A stretch of DNA of 64,000 bases from a virus (lineage: Duplodnaviria; Caudoviricetes), in IMG/VR virus record IMGVR_UViG_3300031555_001562, one strand, 5' to 3'. The translations under genes were made by a program, and so were the position numbers. The notes under the pieces were generated by a model. The model did no database searches. It saw only the letters and a program-made list of their open reading frames with translations, and was not told where the DNA came from. Shown piece after piece: positions 42,704 through 64,000 of the stretch; positions within the stretch are counted from its first letter, which is position 1; the number at the start of each line of letters is the position of its first letter.

Positions 42704-43052
42704 CTTGTACCTCCTTACCGATCATATCGGACTTTGCAGATTCAATCATACGCCGAAGATTATCGATACGTCGCTGAACAAGATCGTTGTACATTTCGAC
42801 TGCCTCTTCATATGTATCCGCATACATTCTTGAATCTCTTCTGACGGAACCAGATCCACGCTTTACTTTTGTTCCTTTCTTATACGGAACAAAGTGTAAT
42901 GAATTATATCTCAATCCATTATTAACGATCTCGCCCAATACTGGTTCGCATTTCAGATCGTGCCGTTCGGTATCATCATTGATATCATAGGCCAATCCCC
43001 AAATTGGTTTGCCAATTGGAGCTTTACTTCTATCACCGTAGTAGTATTTCAT
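42687..43052 (-). CDS. Hypothetical protein
   Basis: 121-aa coupled ORF. Confidence 0.6.
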   Translation of the reverse strand: MKYYYGDRSKAPIGKPIWGLAYDINDDTERHDLKCEPVLGEIVNNGLRYNSLHFVPYKKGTKVKRGSGSVRRDSRMYADTYEEAVEMYNDLVQRRIDNLRRMIESAKSDMIGKEVQDAATD

Positions 43053-46800: not shown

Positions 46801-49031
46801 TTCTTCATAACTCACCCATAGAAATTACATTTGCCTTTGTCTCCGCCACATGAACATAATTCTCGTTCTTTGGTTCCATAGCAAACGGTCTTTCCATATT
46901 CCTCATGAAAACAGTCGCATTTCTTATTAACCGGGGACACAATAGCCAACGCTACCTCCAGAATCTCCGGTTCCAGATCTGCATACTGTTCGACGATTTC
47001 CTGTGCAAATTTCAGCGAATGATAGATCTTCGCTTTACGCAGCTGTTTATCAAAATACTTGTAACCACACCAGAACAAACCGTTACTGGTTCTGATTACG
47101 TACATTTTCTTATCAGCCATTTTCACACTTCCTTACAATCCTGGGCAAAGCAACAAATGATGCAATCACATCAGACAGCTTATAGTCCATCGTATCGATC
47201 TGAAGGATTTCAAAACCGACTGTGTTCATAAGCTCTTTGATGTTTTCTTCGTATCTGTCTTTTGCGTTCATCATTGCCTTGTAGTCTTTTACCAGCCCGG
47301 TATCCTGATAGCGCTTTTCCAGCTTTTCAATCCACTGATCCTTCAGCCTAGGACTAGGGCAAACGATCACTAATCTGGCCTGATCTGCATGGAAAGACAG
47401 ATAGTTTCTTACACACTCATGTGATGACACAAACACGGTGTAGCCCTGTTCAGACAAATTCATTGCGATATTGCAATAGGGAATATACCAATCATTCTGG
47501 CGAACACCATTGACAAAGAAATTACTGCTTTCCAGATCAATGAATCCGTTTCCGTTCTTTGCCAGAGTAGACTTACCGATTCCCTGGTAGCCAACAATAA
47601 TCATTGTTATACCTCTCAATCAACTTGGCAAAAGCATGTATCAAAGTCGCCAGCATCATCTCTAAGCTTTTCAATGGCGACGATCAACATGGTATCCATT
47701 CCTGCATTGCCGGAATCAAGAACCTCATCTCTTGCTGCTTTGAATCTTTCTTCCCCAAGCGCCTTCTTAATACCCTCATATAAGTGAGTATAGTAGCCCT
47801 GATAGTTCACCGACGTTTCAATGAACTTAATTGCTGCTTCAAACGGCTTTCTGCATGCTTCCCACTGCCCAGTTGACAGCATTGAAGTCATAATTTTTGA
47901 AGCATCCTTCAACATAGTTTCGTTATGTATCATTTGAATCTTTTTCCTCTATGTAAAAGATATTTGCATCTTCACGATTACAAATTAAGAACAAGATCAT
48001 GCTCTCAAGATCTCCATCTGGATCGCCCCAATCAAAACAACCATCATGTTCTTTAACAAAATCGATCATATCCTCAACAAGACCAGAGAAATGTTCGCAC
48101 TCTTCTGCACCAGTTGCTTGCGATACCCACAAATCATAACTGTGTGCTTCCTGTCTTAGTCTCGGTTCCAACTCTGTACGAATACGGAAATCAAGGGATG
48201 AATTTTCGTCCTTCGCCTTGTCTAGCTGTAATTCCAGGTTTGCACAACGCATACGAGATTGTTCAAGTTTCCACTTTAGATCTTCTATGTAGCTTTCATC
48301 AACTTCAATCATTCTTCCCGCGGTTGCATCATCCTCGTTCCGTTTTCTCTTACTTTCTTGTGAAAGATAATCATGTCCGCAAGCTTGATTGCAGTCTGAA
48401 TAGCCTTTCTTTGGTTTTCGTTTTTTGCCATACTCAGGAGATGACTATCTGGATCAAACATCCATAATGCCGTATTTTTGTCTTGATTCTTCATGTAGTA
48501 ACATTGCGGCTTCCAGTTGGTCTTTTGTGACCAGATTCTCTAGCGGTATACTATTGAACTTATCGATAGCTCTTTCCATCCAATCGTGTTCACAGTCTAT
48601 CTCTTTGATAAACATCTTATATGCAGCCAACATATCATCGGCGCAGATCATCCAATTCCAACCATTATACTCAGCGCAAAAACTGAAACCATTGTGCTTT
48701 CTCTTCAAGTTATTCTCTCTAAGCTCTTTCTTAGAGAAAACCATCTTCTCTTCTCTTAGGATAGCTCCACGGCGCAATACCTCTCTGCGCCATCTCATTG
48801 CAATTTTCTTTCTCATTTTCAATCCCTATACCACAAACCGTCAAATGAATCATCGACACACTGTTTCTTCAGGCAACAAGGACAAATCAAGTAATCGACT
48901 GCCCTTCGCTTCCTGCCAGTCCTGACCATGATTCCGCCGGAAGTCACATATTCTTCTTCTGTGAACCAGACAGGTTCATATTCGACTCCACATTCGTCGC
49001 ATATGCCATAGTCATTCGATTTCATCAACAT
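43848..49031 (-). other. Tightly packed run of about 17 small hypothetical phage ORFs (60-170 aa)
   Basis: Overlapping starts/stops, several Cys-rich or zinc-ribbon ORFs (e.g. 45452-45808, 48819-49031); no function recognised except 47113-47619. Confidence 0.6.
47113..47619 (-). CDS. P-loop kinase-like protein
   Basis: GYQGIGKST, IDLESS.F. Confidence 0.7.
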   Translation of the reverse strand: MRGITMIIVGYQGIGKSTLAKNGNGFIDLESSNFFVNGVRQNDWYIPYCNIAMNLSEQGYTVFVSSHECVRNYLSFHADQARLVIVCPSPRLKDQWIEKLEKRYQDTGLVKDYKAMMNAKDRYEENIKELMNTVGFEILQIDTMDYKLSDVIASFVALPRIVRKCENG

Positions 49032-50158
49032 AACTCACCCGGAAACAAATCCCTGATATCGATCTCTTCTCTTGCCAAGCAAGTGTCCTTGATAAAGACA
49101 GTCTCGTTTTCGTATTCCGTGTACTCTGTTGCCAGATACCGGGTGAACACAAAACCATTGTTGACCAAATCAATAGCATCCTTTACAGAATACCAGTGCA
49201 TCAGGTCTTCCTTATGGGAGCAAGAGCTGAACCAATTTCTGCCGCCAGCATGATATCTGGGATCATAATCCATAGGAAGATCTTTGGTCTCACACTCAGG
49301 CAGCTTGCCGATTCCCCAAACCAGCTTATTGTCTGCGTTATACCACAGGCCATTGTCCGGAGACTTGCTTTCCAGTCTGTACAGCCACTTTAGTGTACGA
49401 TTCACATCGAACTCAACACGGCTAAATACTTCACCCATCTCTTCATGGAATACCAAACTTGCATAGCTATCCATAGAAGTCGTATCTCTGTTCACAATGA
49501 CGAGTTTTCTGGGTGGAACATAGCTAATCATTCCGGCGGCAGGCCATACACTTAATGAAGTGCCGCACACAATTACCAGATCCGCATTGCGCAGATGATC
49601 GGTTGCATTGTTCCATGCTTGCCAGGGAAGATTTTCTCCATAAAGAGTAACGTCAGGACGAATCTTGCCGCCACATTCACAACGAGGAATAGATTCACCG
49701 GATTCAAAGATATGATTTGAATCGTATTCTTTCATGCAGTCTTCACAATAATTCTTCCTTGTGGTTCCATGAATTTCATCAACGACTGTACTTCCGGCCT
49801 TTCCATGCAGATCATCAATATTCTGCGTGACAACTGAAACGACCTTGCCGTGCCGTTCCAACTCTGCCATCAGATAATGTGCAATGTTGGGATTAACAGT
49901 GCGACAATCCAACTTCTGCCGATAGAATTCATAAAATACGTTTGGATTATTTTGCAGACATTCTCTGCTCAAAAGATACTCAGGAGAAAATGCTTCAAAC
50001 TGGATATCATTCTGATTGTATAGGCCGTCTTTGCTGCGGAAATCAGGAATGCCACTTTCGGTTGACACACCGGCTCCGCTGAAGAACACAATCCTTTTGC
50101 TGGCAGCTACCAGCTTATTCAGTTCTTCGATTCTCTTTTCAAATGATTCTCGATTCAT
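49025..50158 (-). CDS. Sir2/CobB sirtuin with extra C-terminal domain
   Basis: GAGVSTESGIPDFR, TQNID.LH, EIHG, GTSL.V.PA; about 125 aa extension; start MNRES. Confidence 0.9.
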   Translation of the reverse strand: MNRESFEKRIEELNKLVAASKRIVFFSGAGVSTESGIPDFRSKDGLYNQNDIQFEAFSPEYLLSRECLQNNPNVFYEFYRQKLDCRTVNPNIAHYLMAELERHGKVVSVVTQNIDDLHGKAGSTVVDEIHGTTRKNYCEDCMKEYDSNHIFESGESIPRCECGGKIRPDVTLYGENLPWQAWNNATDHLRNADLVIVCGTSLSVWPAAGMISYVPPRKLVIVNRDTTSMDSYASLVFHEEMGEVFSRVEFDVNRTLKWLYRLESKSPDNGLWYNADNKLVWGIGKLPECETKDLPMDYDPRYHAGGRNWFSSCSHKEDLMHWYSVKDAIDLVNNGFVFTRYLATEYTEYENETVFIKDTCLAREEIDIRDLFPGELC

Positions 50159-50160
50159 AA

Positions 50161-50925
50161 TCAAACAATCCTCACAATACTTTCGTACAGAATATTGAAC
50201 TTGCCCATAATCTGCGTGTTTAAGTGGTAATGTCCACAATACCACTTTGTAAACTTCAAACCATTGCGCAACAGTGTATTGAAGAATAACGTGATCGTGT
50301 CTGGTTCCCTGAAACCAAGCATAGAGCATACTTCCTGCGGAAGACAATGAGTGATTACATAGTCAACTTTGTACCCACGTTCACTCAAGGTCTTCAACCC
50401 GAAGTCCATCTCTTCTTGACTAGGTAGTTCTTCCTTCCACCAGGAAATGTGGTTGATCCTGAACATTCGCCGCCACCACTGATAGATCTTTATGATCTTC
50501 TTGAACTCTTTGTCGGTCTGATAGTCGTCACGATCCAGAATACCATCTTTGATATCGTGACAACTTGCGCCCCCGAAAGCAAAGAACTTCTTACCTTCGA
50601 AATTGAATACATAGCCACGCATAAGATGGTAGATATTGTCTCTGATCTTGTGTGCCTTGCCACCGTGGAAGTCAACAATCTCAAACTCGTTATAGAGTCT
50701 ATCGAAGTTTTCGTGATTGCCATCCACAAAACAGATCGTGAAGCTCTTCTGTGATAGCCAGTTCAGCCAATACCGTTCTTCTTCAGTATCAGCCCAAACT
50801 CCGCCGAAGTCTCCGCAAATGATAACTATGTCATCTCTGGTTAGTTTCTTTTGAAGAGGAAACCGTTTTCTATTGAAACGGTGAAAGTCTGCATGGCAAT
50901 CGCCTGTAACGAACACCATAGTCAT
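50161..50925 (-). CDS. Metallophosphoesterase
   Basis: GDCH, CGDFG, DGNHEN, ITH, GHYH. Confidence 0.9.
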   Translation of the reverse strand: MTMVFVTGDCHADFHRFNRKRFPLQKKLTRDDIVIICGDFGGVWADTEEERYWLNWLSQKSFTICFVDGNHENFDRLYNEFEIVDFHGGKAHKIRDNIYHLMRGYVFNFEGKKFFAFGGASCHDIKDGILDRDDYQTDKEFKKIIKIYQWWRRMFRINHISWWKEELPSQEEMDFGLKTLSERGYKVDYVITHCLPQEVCSMLGFREPDTITLFFNTLLRNGLKFTKWYCGHYHLNTQIMGKFNILYESIVRIV

Positions 50926-60496: not shown

Positions 60497-61363
60497 CTAA
60501 ACTTCCTTTCCGGTGATAAAGTCAATCATTTCTGTGTTGATCGATTGCGCTTCTTTTGTTTCCGGATAAAGCGCATTGAAAGCATGTTCAAACCCATCAT
60601 CGTCAAGATAAACGATGTCAAACGGATTTATGAACAAACCGTTGAAAAACATGTCTCTTGTATACTTATATTTGAAGTCATCTTTGGATGTAGAAAGAAT
60701 GCACCTTGGCATCAGGGAAATAACCATCTCCGGATGACTCAAATACCGATACAAATACTTGTATTTCTTCTTGCAGTCTTTGCCGTAGAAGAGACGGCTC
60801 ATAAACAGGCCAACATCATCAAATCTGGTTGTGTAGAACATTCCGCTCTGAAATGCAACACCCAGAATTTCTGGATCATCCGCCGATTGTTGAACTCCGA
60901 ATAATCTTGCGATACGCTCACTCTTTTGGCAAGCGATTGCATACATTGCCAGCAAAGCTCCGGCGCTGTCAGCCATTATGTAGAATTTCTTGTTTGATGG
61001 AACACGTCTTGAGACCTCACGCATGCCATTGACAACATCATGAACCTGATCCATCATAAGAACCTCTGGAACAAGACGATATTCAATTGCGCATACATCA
61101 AACCCCTGTTTTGCTACCCAGGCATTCAGCCATTGATTTTGTGCATTATCTCCCATAATAAGACCGCCACCATGAATATTAATCATTACACGGTCTGTCT
61201 CTGTTGGACATGCGAATTTATCAACAAACTGTCTTGGATGTTTGCCATAAGCAAATCGCCAAATGTCGATGTCAGTAACTTCTCCAAGTTCCTGAATACG
61301 CTTTGCGGTCTGCTTATCCAGTTCTTCTCTCTTTTGTGCTACGATTTTGTCTGCGAAACCCAT
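60497..61363 (-). CDS. Alpha/beta hydrolase (HSL-like esterase)
   Basis: IHGGG, EYRL.PE, ADSAG nucleophile elbow, EHAF. Confidence 0.85.
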   Translation of the reverse strand: MGFADKIVAQKREELDKQTAKRIQELGEVTDIDIWRFAYGKHPRQFVDKFACPTETDRVMINIHGGGLIMGDNAQNQWLNAWVAKQGFDVCAIEYRLVPEVLMMDQVHDVVNGMREVSRRVPSNKKFYIMADSAGALLAMYAIACQKSERIARLFGVQQSADDPEILGVAFQSGMFYTTRFDDVGLFMSRLFYGKDCKKKYKYLYRYLSHPEMVISLMPRCILSTSKDDFKYKYTRDMFFNGLFINPFDIVYLDDDGFEHAFNALYPETKEAQSINTEMIDFITGKEV

Positions 61364-61389
61364 AGATATGCTTCCTTATGTAAAATGTG

Positions 61390-61465
61390 TGGTGCGCCAG
61401 AAGGGATTCGAACCCCCGACCCACGCCTTAAAAGGGCGCTGCTCTACCAACTGAGCTACTGGCGC
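61390..61465 (-). tRNA. tRNA-Lys(TTT)
   Basis: GCGCC-CTTTTAA-GGCGT, CCA. Confidence 0.95.
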
Positions 61466-61469
61466 ATAT

Positions 61470-61697
61470 TTAGTTCTTGTAATCAATGATCTTATCAAAA
61501 TCCAGTGGATTATCTGCGACAGATAATTTCTCATATCCACCTGACACAACTAGCCAAAGAGTGAACTTCTCTTTGATTGGATTGTTTGTTATCAGATATT
61601 CTTTTCCGGACTTCGTTTTACAACCCGTTCTAGCTCCCGTCTCAGATGACGGAATAGATTTTACGATTGTTGACTTATCTGATTTCTTCTTTGCCAA
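61470..61697 (-). CDS. Hypothetical protein
   Basis: 75 aa, TTG start with GGGAG RBS. Confidence 0.6.
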   Translation of the reverse strand: MAKKKSDKSTIVKSIPSSETGARTGCKTKSGKEYLITNNPIKEKFTLWLVVSGGYEKLSVADNPLDFDKIIDYKN

Positions 61698-61719
61698 TTG
61701 AATTTCTCCCGTATCTATG

Positions 61720-62415
61720 TAAAGGAACCTAACAGCGCAATCTACTGCCTTACACAGTTGCTTTTGCCCAATAGTGTTTTCAGTGCGTCGGACTCATTCG
61801 ACTGTACCCAGCTATCGCCAACAGCCAGCTATAGCCCCAAATATCTAACTTATTGGTCTCATGGTTACTGGTTTGTTCCACTCGCTTACTGGAAACCATT
61901 TTTCAGCTTGTGCCGGAGTCAGATCCGGCCTCGCTTACGCACATGGGCGAACCAACGAGCGTAGTCCAATATGTACGATCTCTCGCAATACTGCCTATGC
62001 GACGGCCTAGCTATCACCGCCATGTGGACTGTCCGCACGAGCATTTCGTCTACTTCGGGATGTCTCCCTCACGTCTAATACTCTAATCCCTTTGTGCAGC
62101 ACTATACTAAGATCGGATATGCTGCCGTTACCGAAATAGCTTTTCGGGCATCCCCAGGTAATTTCTAACCTTTTTTGGAATCTTTCACTCTTCCATCAGC
62201 ACGGTTTACCAACCCTGACAGACTCGCCATCTGCCGTACTCACATCTATGGGCGTAATCGATATATCCTATAAACATGATCCAATACGCACGATTTCTCG
62301 CAGTATTGCCTTTGCAAGCTCATGCACCTAGCGCTCGGCATCAGAACTTGTACCCTCGTCACCATCGACCTTTCGGTATGGCGCTCTCAGGAGGCTACCC
62401 TTTTGAGGCATGATT
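61720..62415 (-). ncRNA. Candidate large structured RNA (about 700 nt)
   Basis: No minus-strand ORF of 60 aa or more; several GNRA hairpins; duplicated 31-nt hairpin with compensatory changes; follows tRNA-Tyr. Confidence 0.6.
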
Positions 62416-62430
62416 TAATCTTCACTTATT

Positions 62431-62536
62431 TGGTGAGACAGGATAGGATTCGAACCTACGAAGCGTCTAACTACCTAGGATCCTGTGCGACGCACGGTTT
62501 TACAGACCGCCCGTTTGACCACTTCGGCACTGTCTC
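62431..62536 (-). tRNA. tRNA-Tyr(GTA) with oversized variable arm
   Basis: GCGGT-CTGTAAA-ACCGT; 106 nt; CCA. Confidence 0.85.
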
Positions 62537-62540
62537 ATAT

Positions 62541-62616
62541 TGGCAGGAGAGGAAGGATTCGAACCCTCGTTGATGATTTTGGAGACCATAGTCCTAGGCC
62601 ACTAAACGACTCTCCT
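62541..62616 (-). tRNA. tRNA-Trp(CCA)
   Basis: ATGGT-CTCCAAA-ATCAT, CCA. Confidence 0.92.
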
Positions 62617-62620
62617 GTAT

Positions 62621-62706
62621 TGGCGGAACGCAGTGGACTCGAACCACATACCTTTCAGTACCAACCGATTAGCAGTCGGAGCCAGTACCTCACTGGTTTA
62701 CGTTCC
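62621..62706 (-). tRNA. tRNA-Ser(GCT), 8/4 cloverleaf
   Basis: 8-bp acceptor GGAACGTA/TGCGTTCC, 4-bp T stem, 5-bp D stem, G73, CCA. Confidence 0.85.
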
Positions 62707-62709
62707 ATA

Positions 62710-62784
62710 TGGCTGCCCCGGCTGGTTTCGAACCAGCGAATACGAGAGTCAAAGTCTCGTGCCTTACCGCTTGGCTACGGGGCA
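62710..62784 (-). tRNA. tRNA-Gln(TTG)
   Basis: CGAGA-CTTTGAC-TCTCG, CCA. Confidence 0.95.
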
Positions 62785-62832
62785 ATATATACATTGCACC
62801 TACCCTCCCGATTCTCCAAGTAGGACATCCAC

Positions 62833-63474
62833 TCACGGCAGTCCGTTATATCTGCCGTCGTTAAGGAATCGCAAGAACGTGGACATGGCTAATCCCTTTA
62901 TTGCGTTTGTTTCTTCTACAACTGCAACATATGTCCATCCGATTCCGTACATCATTAGGATTGCGTTCATGATGGATGGCAATGCGGCAGGAAGCAGTAT
63001 CTCGAAAATGATCTCATGTTTTTTCATTCCGATTGATCTGCCAGTATCGATCAGGTCTTGTGGTACTTCCTGAAGACAATTGACCGTAGATGGCAAAACA
63101 TATACGAATGTTGCGATGAACAGGAACGAGATCTTCATTGTTTCATCAATGCCGAACCAGAGGATCAGCAGCGGTGAAAAAGCTGTTACAGGGATATACC
63201 GCATGGCAGAAACAATCGGAGAAATCATATCGTTCAGTGTTTTGCTTGAGCATATCAGCAATGCCAGCGGAACTGCAATTCCGGTTGCCAGCAGAGTGGC
63301 GGTCGAAATTCTGTTGAAAGAATAGATCAGACCTGGGATCAGCTGATCCGTTTCGATCAGGCCAATCAATGCTTCCCATACAGACGCTGGTGACGGAACA
63401 AACAGCGGAGTTGTCATCGTTGAACCGATTTGCCATACGATCAGTAGGATCAAGACTCCTAATACCTTCTTCAC
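62833..63474 (-). CDS. ABC transporter permease (NitT/TauT type), probably C-terminally truncated
   Basis: PSP..V, RYIP.TA..PLLILWFGI.E..K, EAA-like loop, LPAALP.I; GTG start with GGAGG; lacks the last TM segment. Confidence 0.8.
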   Translation of the reverse strand: MKKVLGVLILLIVWQIGSTMTTPLFVPSPASVWEALIGLIETDQLIPGLIYSFNRISTATLLATGIAVPLALLICSSKTLNDMISPIVSAMRYIPVTAFSPLLILWFGIDETMKISFLFIATFVYVLPSTVNCLQEVPQDLIDTGRSIGMKKHEIIFEILLPAALPSIMNAILMMYGIGWTYVAVVEETNAIKGLAMSTFLRFLNDGRYNGLP

Positions 63475-63501
63475 TTTTTCACCTCCGTGTTTAGTTTTGT
63501 T

Positions 63502-63592
63502 TGGCGGACGGGGTGGGATTCGAACCCACGGTGGAGCAAGCCCCATCACTGGTTTTCAAGACCAGCTCCATAAACCGCTCGGACACCCGTCC
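63502..63592 (-). tRNA. tRNA-Ser(TGA)
   Basis: CTGGT-CTTGAAA-ACCAG, long variable arm, CCA. Confidence 0.95.
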
Positions 63593-63625
63593 GTGTTATA
63601 TTCCGATTTGTTGGGTCTACTTTTG

Positions 63626-63972
63626 AATCAAGCTGTTGAGCCATAGGTCTCACACCTATGGGAGTGATGGTTGGATTTGGCTGCGCAAACCTTACCAACG
63701 GTCTTTTCACCTTCGATGACCAATCTTTTAACCTTTGTTTACATCACTTTTTCACACAGATCACTTTTAAGAGACTTTCTTTTTGTTCACACTCAGAAGA
63801 TTCGAACTCCAACCGCCCAATACCCTTTGGGCAGCTCTGCCCCTTGAGACTTATCGTTGTGCTAATCTCTGCCACACCGGACTGATCGTTGTACATCCGA
63901 TGCTTTGTCCGGCCTGTACATTGTGGCATAATCTGTGAGGATCTTTACTCACCACTCAACCGCTCCTTGATT
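63626..63972 (-). ncRNA. Candidate structured RNA (about 350 nt) with paired ends
   Basis: Starts just after TG-a-TATAAT (63981-63986); 5' AAUCAAG..GUUGAG pairs with 3' CUCAAC..CUUGAUU; internal T-loop hairpin. Confidence 0.5.
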
Positions 63973-64000
63973 ACAAGAGGATTATATCACATTTATCTCC

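Follow-up and report, generated by a model that had tools for sequence, protein, structure and literature searches.

What occupies the 733 nt that separate a tRNA-Tyr-like gene from a short open reading frame (ORF), ORF75, in the tRNA island of the Caudoviricetes virus IMGVR_UViG_3300031555_001562? The stretch lies at 61700-62432 on the minus strand of the window, i.e., the 64,000 nt of DNA analyzed here, which form the end of a 163,674-bp IMG/VR virus record (the window minus strand is the contig plus strand). RNA position 1 corresponds to window position 62432. An earlier note on this locus had described a candidate structured RNA of about 700 nt, possibly of the GOLLD or ROOL kind. The stretch was found to comprise two parts: a 3′ part of about 190 nt, which is a member of a recurring pseudoknot family, and an upstream part of about 520 nt, which contains two copies of a two-hairpin module.

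A pseudoknot family at the 3′ end of the stretch

A family search pattern was built from the first conserved block of the 3′ part and run on IMG/VR, the JGI/ENA metagenomes and the GTDB genomes. True relatives were told by an independent downstream CUGUUAG box and by a complement to a variable 7-mer. Two covariance-model searches of the GTDB genomes added four further distinct members: three second copies from Verrucomicrobia and a divergent member, L090, from a Clostridia metagenome-assembled genome (MAG). One additional locus from these searches, L082, was identical to L041. The family unit is about 105 nt long and its members were phages, prophage-like contigs and a narrow clade of Verrucomicrobia. 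Covariation was tested on a model-guided alignment of 26 distinct sequences; this alignment was fitted to helices P0 and P2, and helix P1 was absent from the model. A scan with P1 left free returned known members only, together with three coding false positives.

Three helices defined the core. P0 joins the 2-3 nt preceding GAAAAA to the 2-3 nt that follow CCAGUA (GC/CG/UA/AU, 100% paired) and encloses an 18-nt loop with the family consensus GAAAAAGGGUUUCCAGUA; the closing pair was GC in 17 sequences, CG in eight and UA in one. In P1, the loop bases GGGUU pair with AACCC after the linker AAACCAGU (100% paired, three of the five pairs changed on both sides). The first P1 pair was U-A in the window copy and L039 and G-C in the others, while L090 carried GGGGCA/UGCCCC, in which two further pairs were changed on both sides. 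P2 is a 7-bp long-range helix, its 3′ strand placed directly after the invariant CUGUUAG; all seven pairs covaried (94% paired) and the sequence of the helix differed in almost every member. As P1 crosses P0 as well as P2, the core forms a double pseudoknot. Across the 14 pairs of the three helices 96.9% of cells were paired, 12 pairs were changed on both sides, and 0 of 500 shuffles were as good. In a control in which partners were slid by 1-3 columns, pairing was 31-56%.

Outside the core, P4 (with the pentaloop GUAAG) and P5b covaried within the phage subtype, with five pairs changed on both sides and 94% paired. P3 was a short variable hairpin in members other than the window copy and was absent in L034 and L060. 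Since P3-P5 are lacking in the minimal L034 (78 nt) and in L060 (one variable hairpin), the essential core is made up of helices P0, P1 and P2, the loop, CUGUUAG and the linker AAACCAGUAACCC. About 40 unpaired bases were near-invariant across the family.

The window copy of the pseudoknot module, including a 77-nt expansion inside P3, spans 61719-61907 on the minus strand. It scored 70.4 bits against R1, the family covariance model (E 7e-15, model positions 1-108), a score that is partly by construction because the window sequence is in the R1 seed; E-values of R1 and of the R2 model described below are rough. This was the sole R1 copy in the phage genome, and the next-best place in a phage genome scored 12 bits. 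P0, P1 and P2 were all present. P0 (61884-61907) pairs GCU (61905-61907) with AGC (61884-61886) around the loop GAAAAAUGGUUUCCAGUA (61887-61904), which holds the 5′ strand of P1, UGGUU (61894-61898). The segment 61862-61881 contains the 5′ strand of P2, GUGGAAC (61875-61881), the linker AAACCAGU (61867-61874) and the 3′ strand of P1, AACCA (61862-61866). P3 (61768-61856) pairs CCAAUA (61851-61856) with UAUUGG (61768-61773) around a branched insertion of 77 nt that is specific to this lineage. The next segment (61729-61764) contains P5a (AAAG/CUGU), P5b (CA/UG), P4 (ACUGU/GCAGU), the pentaloop GUAAG (61749-61753) and the invariant CUGUUAG (61729-61735), and is followed by the 3′ strand of P2, GUUCCUU (61722-61728). 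GUGGAAC and GUUCCUU pair at six of seven positions; the U-U mismatch in P2, the U-A pair in P1 and the branched P3 expansion are the peculiarities of this copy. P2 ends 11 nt before the Shine-Dalgarno sequence GGGAG and 24 nt before the start of ORF75.

By comparative sequence evidence, the fold of the pseudoknot and the membership of the window copy in the family are established. The earlier note had looked to homologues and their covariation for support of its RNA. This was obtained for the 3′ pseudoknot part, where 12 of the 14 pairs covary; the upstream 520 nt or so yielded no homologues.

The whole genomes of phage relatives, compared by blastn, matched the stretch in the pseudoknot block only. 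RNA positions 529-577 matched an intergenic site at another place in the genome of the closest relative (E 3e-8). At that site (L027), a consensus TTGACA-17-TATAAT promoter precedes the motif by about 70 nt, and the ribosome-binding site (RBS) and ATG of a DUF5662 gene follow just after it. The two conserved blocks are adjacent in L027 and are split in the window copy by the P3 expansion of about 77 nt. Matches of 21 nt in genomes G004 and G005 fell in apparent coding sequence and were rejected as chance. Where present, the family had one copy per phage genome (G000, G002 +; G001, G003 −).

The unit of about 105 nt stood alone in L027, L033, L034, L047, L048 and others. In most phage members, a same-strand ORF followed the core after 12-45 nt (L027, L034, L039, L040/46, L047, L055 and the window), and members were often next to tRNA or tmRNA genes. 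L034 and the window copy are inside tRNA arrays and L039 is located 30 nt after a tRNA-Gly gene. In L055:128-1421, from a human gut metagenome, the pseudoknot begins 2 nt after a phage-type transfer-messenger RNA (tmRNA; 98.9 bits) and precedes the gene for a Thg1-like tRNA-His guanylyltransferase; the Clostridia MAG L068 has the same sequence. The Verrucomicrobia MAGs examined contained two chromosomal copies each (five checked). Copy 2 (L079/L080/L081:1501-1594), with GAAUAA and AUACCAGU as variants of the loop, is in the 5′ untranslated region of a gene for a small secreted protein, 57 nt upstream of its ATG. In Verrucomicrobia, one of 151 phylum-sampled and two of 121 order-sampled genomes contained the family, so it does not serve as a housekeeping RNA of that phylum. 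Two of 151 sampled Clostridia genomes contained it.

The upstream part, coding capacity and known RNA classes

The earlier note had described a duplicated GNRA hairpin with pair-preserving differences and GAAA versus GAGA loops, and the repeat analysis confirmed it. A repeat search found a single 36-nt direct repeat at 61965-62000 and 62280-62315 (83% identical, spacing 315), which was also the sole internal blastn match (E 1.9e-4 against the 164-kb genome). Read on the minus strand, both copies contain hairpin H1, which has 11 bp, one bulged C and a GNRA loop (GAAA or GAGA). All four H1 stem differences were pair-preserving: C-G to U-A (a double change), A-U to G-U, and U-G to U-A. On the opposite strand, the G-U pairs of H1 would become C-A mismatches, which ties the fold to the tRNA (minus) strand.

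The duplication extends beyond H1 to RNA positions 45-209 versus 363-514 (nhmmer, E 1.5e-7 within the region and 3.5e-5 genome-wide). RNAalifold on the two copies revealed a second shared hairpin, H2, directly after H1, with three compensatory pairs. The consensus fold of H1 and H2 had a z-score of −4.46, and 0 of 300 column shuffles were as good; the part upstream of H1 had no shared structure (z = +0.49). On the minus strand, copy A of the module (62241-62308) contains H1a at 62282-62308 (11 bp, GAAA loop) and H2a at 62241-62278, and copy B (61936-61993) contains H1b at 61967-61993 (GAGA loop) and H2b at 61936-61963. These scored 100.1 and 85.4 bits, respectively, on R2, a covariance model of the two-hairpin module. 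Judged from these substitutions, H1 and H2 are kept folded by compensatory change and are under selection.

Only the two local copies were found by R2 in the phage genome, and none in four related genomes or 27 loci. H1 patterns, either strict or with the lower stem free, had zero matches each in IMG/VR, and an nhmmer comparison of RNA positions 1-525 with all fetched loci was empty. A third H1-like copy at about 42915-42943 is inside an ORF and was rejected as chance. A tandem duplication of the whole unit with a degenerate first pseudoknot was also rejected: the similarity was not significant (z 2.1 and 0.65) and R1 finds one copy. A further hairpin given in the earlier note, CCAU-ACC-GAAA-GGU-CG-AUGG, was found at 62362-62381 (minus strand) as a GAAA hairpin supported by this single sequence only.

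Phage relatives were fetched via neighboring proteins: the 743-aa protein (L013, 62% identity; L014, 54%), ORF75 (L012, 58%) and an esterase. No sequence homologous to the stretch was found by nhmmer or blastn in the loci around the homologues of these three proteins. In L013, the array consists of tRNA-Gln, tRNA-Ser(GCU) and tRNA-Lys, followed by the 743-aa gene, and the Ser-Lys gap is 73 nt. The corresponding Ser(GCU)-Lys interval of L014 is about 200 nt and holds tRNA-Ile, and that of the phage studied here is 1.15 kb, comprising tRNA-Trp, tRNA-Tyr, the 733 nt and ORF75. The ORF75 homologue of L012 (58% identical) had no such RNA upstream. Synteny with L039 was rejected, as the neighboring proteins are unrelated. 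From these comparisons, the upstream 520 nt or so is a lineage-specific addition; its role may be scaffolding or protein binding.

The stretch is non-coding. The earlier note had reported no minus-strand ORF of at least 60 aa between tRNA-Tyr and the gene at 61697, and the longest minus-strand ORF was 41 aa. Six-frame translation of 61690-62440 gave 5-17 stops per frame, and since all six frames are full of all three kinds of stop, no single stop-codon reassignment opens a frame. The short ORFs of the stretch had no family match to Pfam or PHROGs in any frame. Coding under another genetic code and a decayed gene were rejected on the stops and the zero Pfam and PHROGs matches. The G+C content of the stretch is about 0.50 and uniform, i.e., tRNA-like, that of the flanking genes is 0.42-0.45, and the minus strand of the stretch is purine-rich.

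A cmscan of the window with all 4227 Rfam 15 families at gathering scores returned tRNAs only. At E ≤ 10, the matches of the stretch were at chance level and to eukaryotic or archaeal families, e.g., the small nucleolar RNA sR38 and the long non-coding RNA TCL6_1 at about 15 bits. The identities that the earlier note had named for comparison, i.e., GOLLD, ROOL, OLE and group I or II introns, did not materialize, as no Rfam 15 family matched in 61700-62432. The covariance models of OLE, group I and II introns, RNase P, tmRNA, 6S and HEARO had no match inside these coordinates. With GOLLD (RF02032, gathering score 150 bits), 18 candidates were scored across the whole phage genome and none matched at E ≤ 10. 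ROOL (RF03087, 574 positions, gathering score 99.1 bits) likewise had none at E ≤ 10 in the whole genome, a result that comes with no positive control, as the control genomes were likewise matchless. Group-II-D1D4-1 (RF01998) had only chance matches in the phage genome, all outside the stretch. Rfam, at gathering scores and at E ≤ 10, found nothing on L017, L066, L048 (as an isolated motif) or L090. The stretch had no blastn match in INPHARED (50,697 GenBank phages).

Competing readings of the stretch

The reading that we favor, tentatively and at somewhat below an even chance on the sequence evidence, is that the stretch is a composite co-transcribed leader or spacer in which an autonomous pseudoknot acts in cis on ORF75. 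The 3′ 190 nt are the only part with homologues and are found elsewhere alone as a unit of about 105 nt, which makes them an autonomous module rather than one domain within a large shared RNA. A search of the minus strand over 61300-64000 revealed no sigma-70-like promoter, so the stretch is probably transcribed with the upstream tRNAs as part of the minus-strand tRNA array. Its 5′ end would be created by 3′ processing of the tRNA-Tyr-like gene. In the resulting RNA, P0 would close the 18-nt loop, five loop bases would pair downstream as P1, and P2 would close the rest, which carries the variable hairpins P3-P5. The near-invariant unpaired bases may point to a specific ligand, a partner or a catalytic core. 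The pseudoknot could then act in cis on the ORF75 mRNA in one of two ways: as a riboswitch-like sensor of a ligand or partner, or as a compact 5′ structure protecting the processed transcript against decay. Within the same reading, the pseudoknot might alternatively be released as a stable RNA. Of the features expected of a riboswitch, the family has aptamer-like conservation and several positions in 5′ untranslated regions (5′ UTRs); the downstream genes, however, are unrelated, and no alternative pairing with an RBS or terminator was established.

Several observations weigh against action in cis on ORF75. The ORFs downstream of the family are mutually unrelated (DUF5662, DUF6934, Thg1-like, crAss001_48-like and no-family ORFs), unlike the regulon of a metabolite riboswitch, and since phage genomes are densely packed, the proximity of an ORF to any intergenic element is weak evidence. 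There is no obvious pairing that masks the Shine-Dalgarno sequence of ORF75. In L048, the motif is located between tRNA-Asp and tRNA-Met, 4 nt before tRNA-Met, in an island of tRNAs and tmRNA. Verrucomicrobia copy 1 (L066:2860-3110) is a unit of about 230 nt with extra flanking helices, its own terminator and a convergent downstream gene. The search pattern fixed 22 core bases, so the conservation of these bases is partly ascertainment, from which only L090 and the second Verrucomicrobia copies escape. The folding energy of the whole region and of sliding windows was no better than that of shuffles; thermodynamic z-scores are uninformative here, as even tRNAs fail to stand out. Finally, with the 5′ 520 nt or so lacking homologues, a functional union of this part with the pseudoknot is possible.

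A second reading, which we consider unlikely although its weight is nearly comparable, holds that the pseudoknot is a stand-alone stable small RNA that acts in trans, works with the tRNA machinery or cleaves itself as a small ribozyme. RNase P, RNase Z or the RNA itself would release it from the tRNA-array transcript, and its closeness to ORF75 would reflect only tight gene packing. The weight of this reading comes from four places: L048, between two tRNAs; L055, immediately after the tmRNA; Verrucomicrobia copy 1, with its own intrinsic terminator and a convergent downstream gene; and L090, where the module appears to sit in a tRNA-Leu-like scaffold. The heterogeneous downstream ORFs also fit it. 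L027 and Verrucomicrobia copy 2, in contrast, occupy classic 5′-UTR positions. The family has no Rfam ribozyme match, and neither a cleavage-site signature nor a conserved 3′ end could be defined.

The scaffold of L090 was recognized by eye. This divergent member is on the minus strand (1440-1640) of a prophage-like Clostridia MAG contig, G361:C40, that contains ParB and crAss001_48-like genes. The 5′ flank, UAUAUGG-UG-GCGGAAUAGGUAGACGC-A, resembles the acceptor strand and D arm of a tRNA of the Leu type. The 3′ flank consists of a 6-bp T-arm-like hairpin (loop UGCAAAU) and, after it, CUGUAUA, a complement of the 5′ acceptor strand. In this tmRNA-like plan, which is a lead only, the module seems to take the place of the anticodon and variable arms of a tRNA-like scaffold. 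Neither ARAGORN nor Rfam called these tRNA-like flanks, which counts against their use as support for a stand-alone RNA.

In a third reading, only the pseudoknot is functional and the 5′ 520 nt or so is debris: a local duplication together with decayed sequence, once a gene or RNA genes, that the transcript simply retains. No relative and no searched collection contained the 5′ part, and outside H1 and H2 its halves are neither significantly similar nor alike in structure (the z-scores given above). That H1 and H2 have stayed folded argues against mere debris: the flanks have diverged beyond recognition, yet the two hairpins still form in each copy, all stem substitutions preserve pairing and four are double compensatory. 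The G+C content is at the tRNA level throughout and no frame holds a trace of a protein family. We consider this reading improbable, though it retains some weight.

That the whole stretch of about 730 nt forms a single large, ornate RNA, a new class akin to GOLLD and ROOL, with the pseudoknot as its conserved 3′ domain and a fast-evolving 5′ part, is more doubtful still. The uniform tRNA-like G+C, the purine-rich minus strand, the missing ORF, the many GNRA-capped hairpins and the duplicated covarying module would suit such an RNA. However, the GOLLD and ROOL models were matchless, none of the 25 other members had a comparable 5′ extension, L039, the closest relative with the module, has 30 nt between tRNA and module, and the minimum free energy of the region was no better than that of shuffles. 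As the stretch has no Rfam match and is missing from the closest relatives, one RNA of about 700 nt of a known or shared class is unsupported, and a single large RNA is possible only as a lineage-specific construction. The proposal of the earlier note, a structured RNA of about 700 nt, thus survives in part: the stretch is non-coding, on the tRNA strand and tRNA-like in G+C, and contains compensated helices, but one RNA of the GOLLD or ROOL kind was not recovered by any covariance model.

Phage UG27 reverse-transcriptase systems include variable arrays of structurally conserved, sequence-diverse non-coding RNA units (10.64898/2026.09.22.753630); a template array of this type was rejected for the stretch, as the phage has its two reverse-transcriptase genes about 6 kb and about 98 kb away from it. 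These two genes (RVT_1, 67 and 53 bits) are located outside the window at G000:C1:2731-3378 (minus strand) and G000:C1:94937-95431 (plus strand).

Known systems and genomic setting

Phage tRNA islands are known to hide large RNAs, namely GOLLD and ROOL. The stretch is like these in being phage-borne, on the tRNA strand, in or beside a tRNA island, and several hundred nt long without an ORF. A further likeness is the layout of GOLLD, in which the 3′ region is conserved and the 5′ region variable (10.1101/2024.12.08.627333). The stretch differs in that the conserved unit is about 105 nt, against 400-600 nt in GOLLD and ROOL, and in that its 5′ part lacks homologues. The leader of T4 gene 32 is a phage translational-operator pseudoknot (PMC10690425) and, like the motif described here, is located immediately 5′ of a phage ORF. 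The gene 32 operators belong to one gene family and one phage-encoded protein, whereas the present family is found before unrelated genes, and its near-identity extends from Clostridia phages to Verrucomicrobia chromosomes.

Some H-type pseudoknot aptamers, such as the preQ1-II and SAM-II riboswitches, carry hairpins within loop 3. Points of likeness to these include the compact pseudoknot, invariant junction bases, an A-rich strand, 5′-UTR positions near the RBS and variable peripheral hairpins. The family differs from them in having no covariance-model or sequence likeness to Rfam riboswitches and no common downstream function, and some members are outside 5′ UTRs. Chimeras of tmRNA and tRNA are a further comparison: the family is found in tRNA arrays and after a tmRNA (L055), and L090, read by eye, resembles the tmRNA plan of a tRNA top half around a pseudoknotted insert. 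In contrast to such chimeras, neither the motif nor L090 had a tRNA or tmRNA model match, there is no tag frame, and the window copy has no tRNA-like flanks.

Fremin et al. (2023; PMC10690425) reported 10,006 candidate structured viral RNAs (csRNAs) from IMG/VR, which are supported by covariation and many of which are upstream of genes or tRNA-like. The csRNAs are the same kind of object, and the pseudoknot family, compared with them by description only, could be among them. None of the papers searched contained the core sequence, and searches by descriptors found no description of the motif. The pseudoknot is rated new as an RNA family absent from Rfam 15, although of a familiar kind, i.e., a conserved pseudoknotted phage RNA motif.

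The family adds a small, sharply defined pseudoknot with riboswitch- or ribozyme-grade conservation to the phage tRNA-island neighborhood. Its near-identical cores span Clostridia-associated gut phages to freshwater and marine Verrucomicrobia, and it comes with a ready covariance model and test constructs, including the minimal 78-nt member L034. For the window, one mysterious RNA of 700 nt is replaced by a dissected architecture, a patchwork of folded RNA pieces. A bolder proposal, less likely than not but with a real chance of being right, is that the pseudoknot is a new riboswitch (with a universal ligand), a ribozyme or a module of the tRNA or translation machinery, housed in phage tRNA islands, adopted in two chromosomal copies by one Verrucomicrobia clade and built here into a lineage-specific RNA of about 730 nt. 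If ligand binding, self-cleavage or docking on the tRNA-processing or translation apparatus were true of it, the family would be a new regulatory or catalytic RNA class and would provide a handle on the use that phages make of their tRNA islands.

The minus-strand tRNA island spans 52.6-63.6 kb of the window and contains 12 tRNAs called by ARAGORN, interspersed with small ORFs and non-coding pieces. The upstream neighbor of the stretch is the tRNA-Tyr(GUA)-like gene at 62435-62536 (minus strand), which is 102 nt long, with an oversized variable arm and an anticodon read from the sequence. It scored 34.4 bits on the Rfam tRNA-Sec model, below the gathering score, and was not called by ARAGORN; the neighboring tRNA-Ser(GCU) likewise scored best on the tRNA-Sec model (39 bits). 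Downstream, the segment 61470-61710 (minus strand) contains the Shine-Dalgarno sequence GGGAG (61706-61710) and ORF75, which starts with TTG at 61697, is 75 aa long and belongs to no family. The next gene of the same-strand array is tRNA-Lys(UUU) at 61390-61465 (minus strand).

Other protein-coding genes in this neighborhood were also annotated. The 743-aa gene corresponds to phrog_33734 and has no Pfam match. A SIR2-family protein gene (440 aa, 182 bits) at 49025-50347 (minus strand) adjoins the tRNA island. Within the island, a 238-aa ORF at 62833-63549 (minus strand) encodes an ABC-transporter permease domain (BPD_transp_1, 62 bits; phrog_6743). Since tRNA-Ser(UGA), at 63502-63592, overlaps the 5′ end of this ORF, either its true start is further downstream or the ORF is a remnant.

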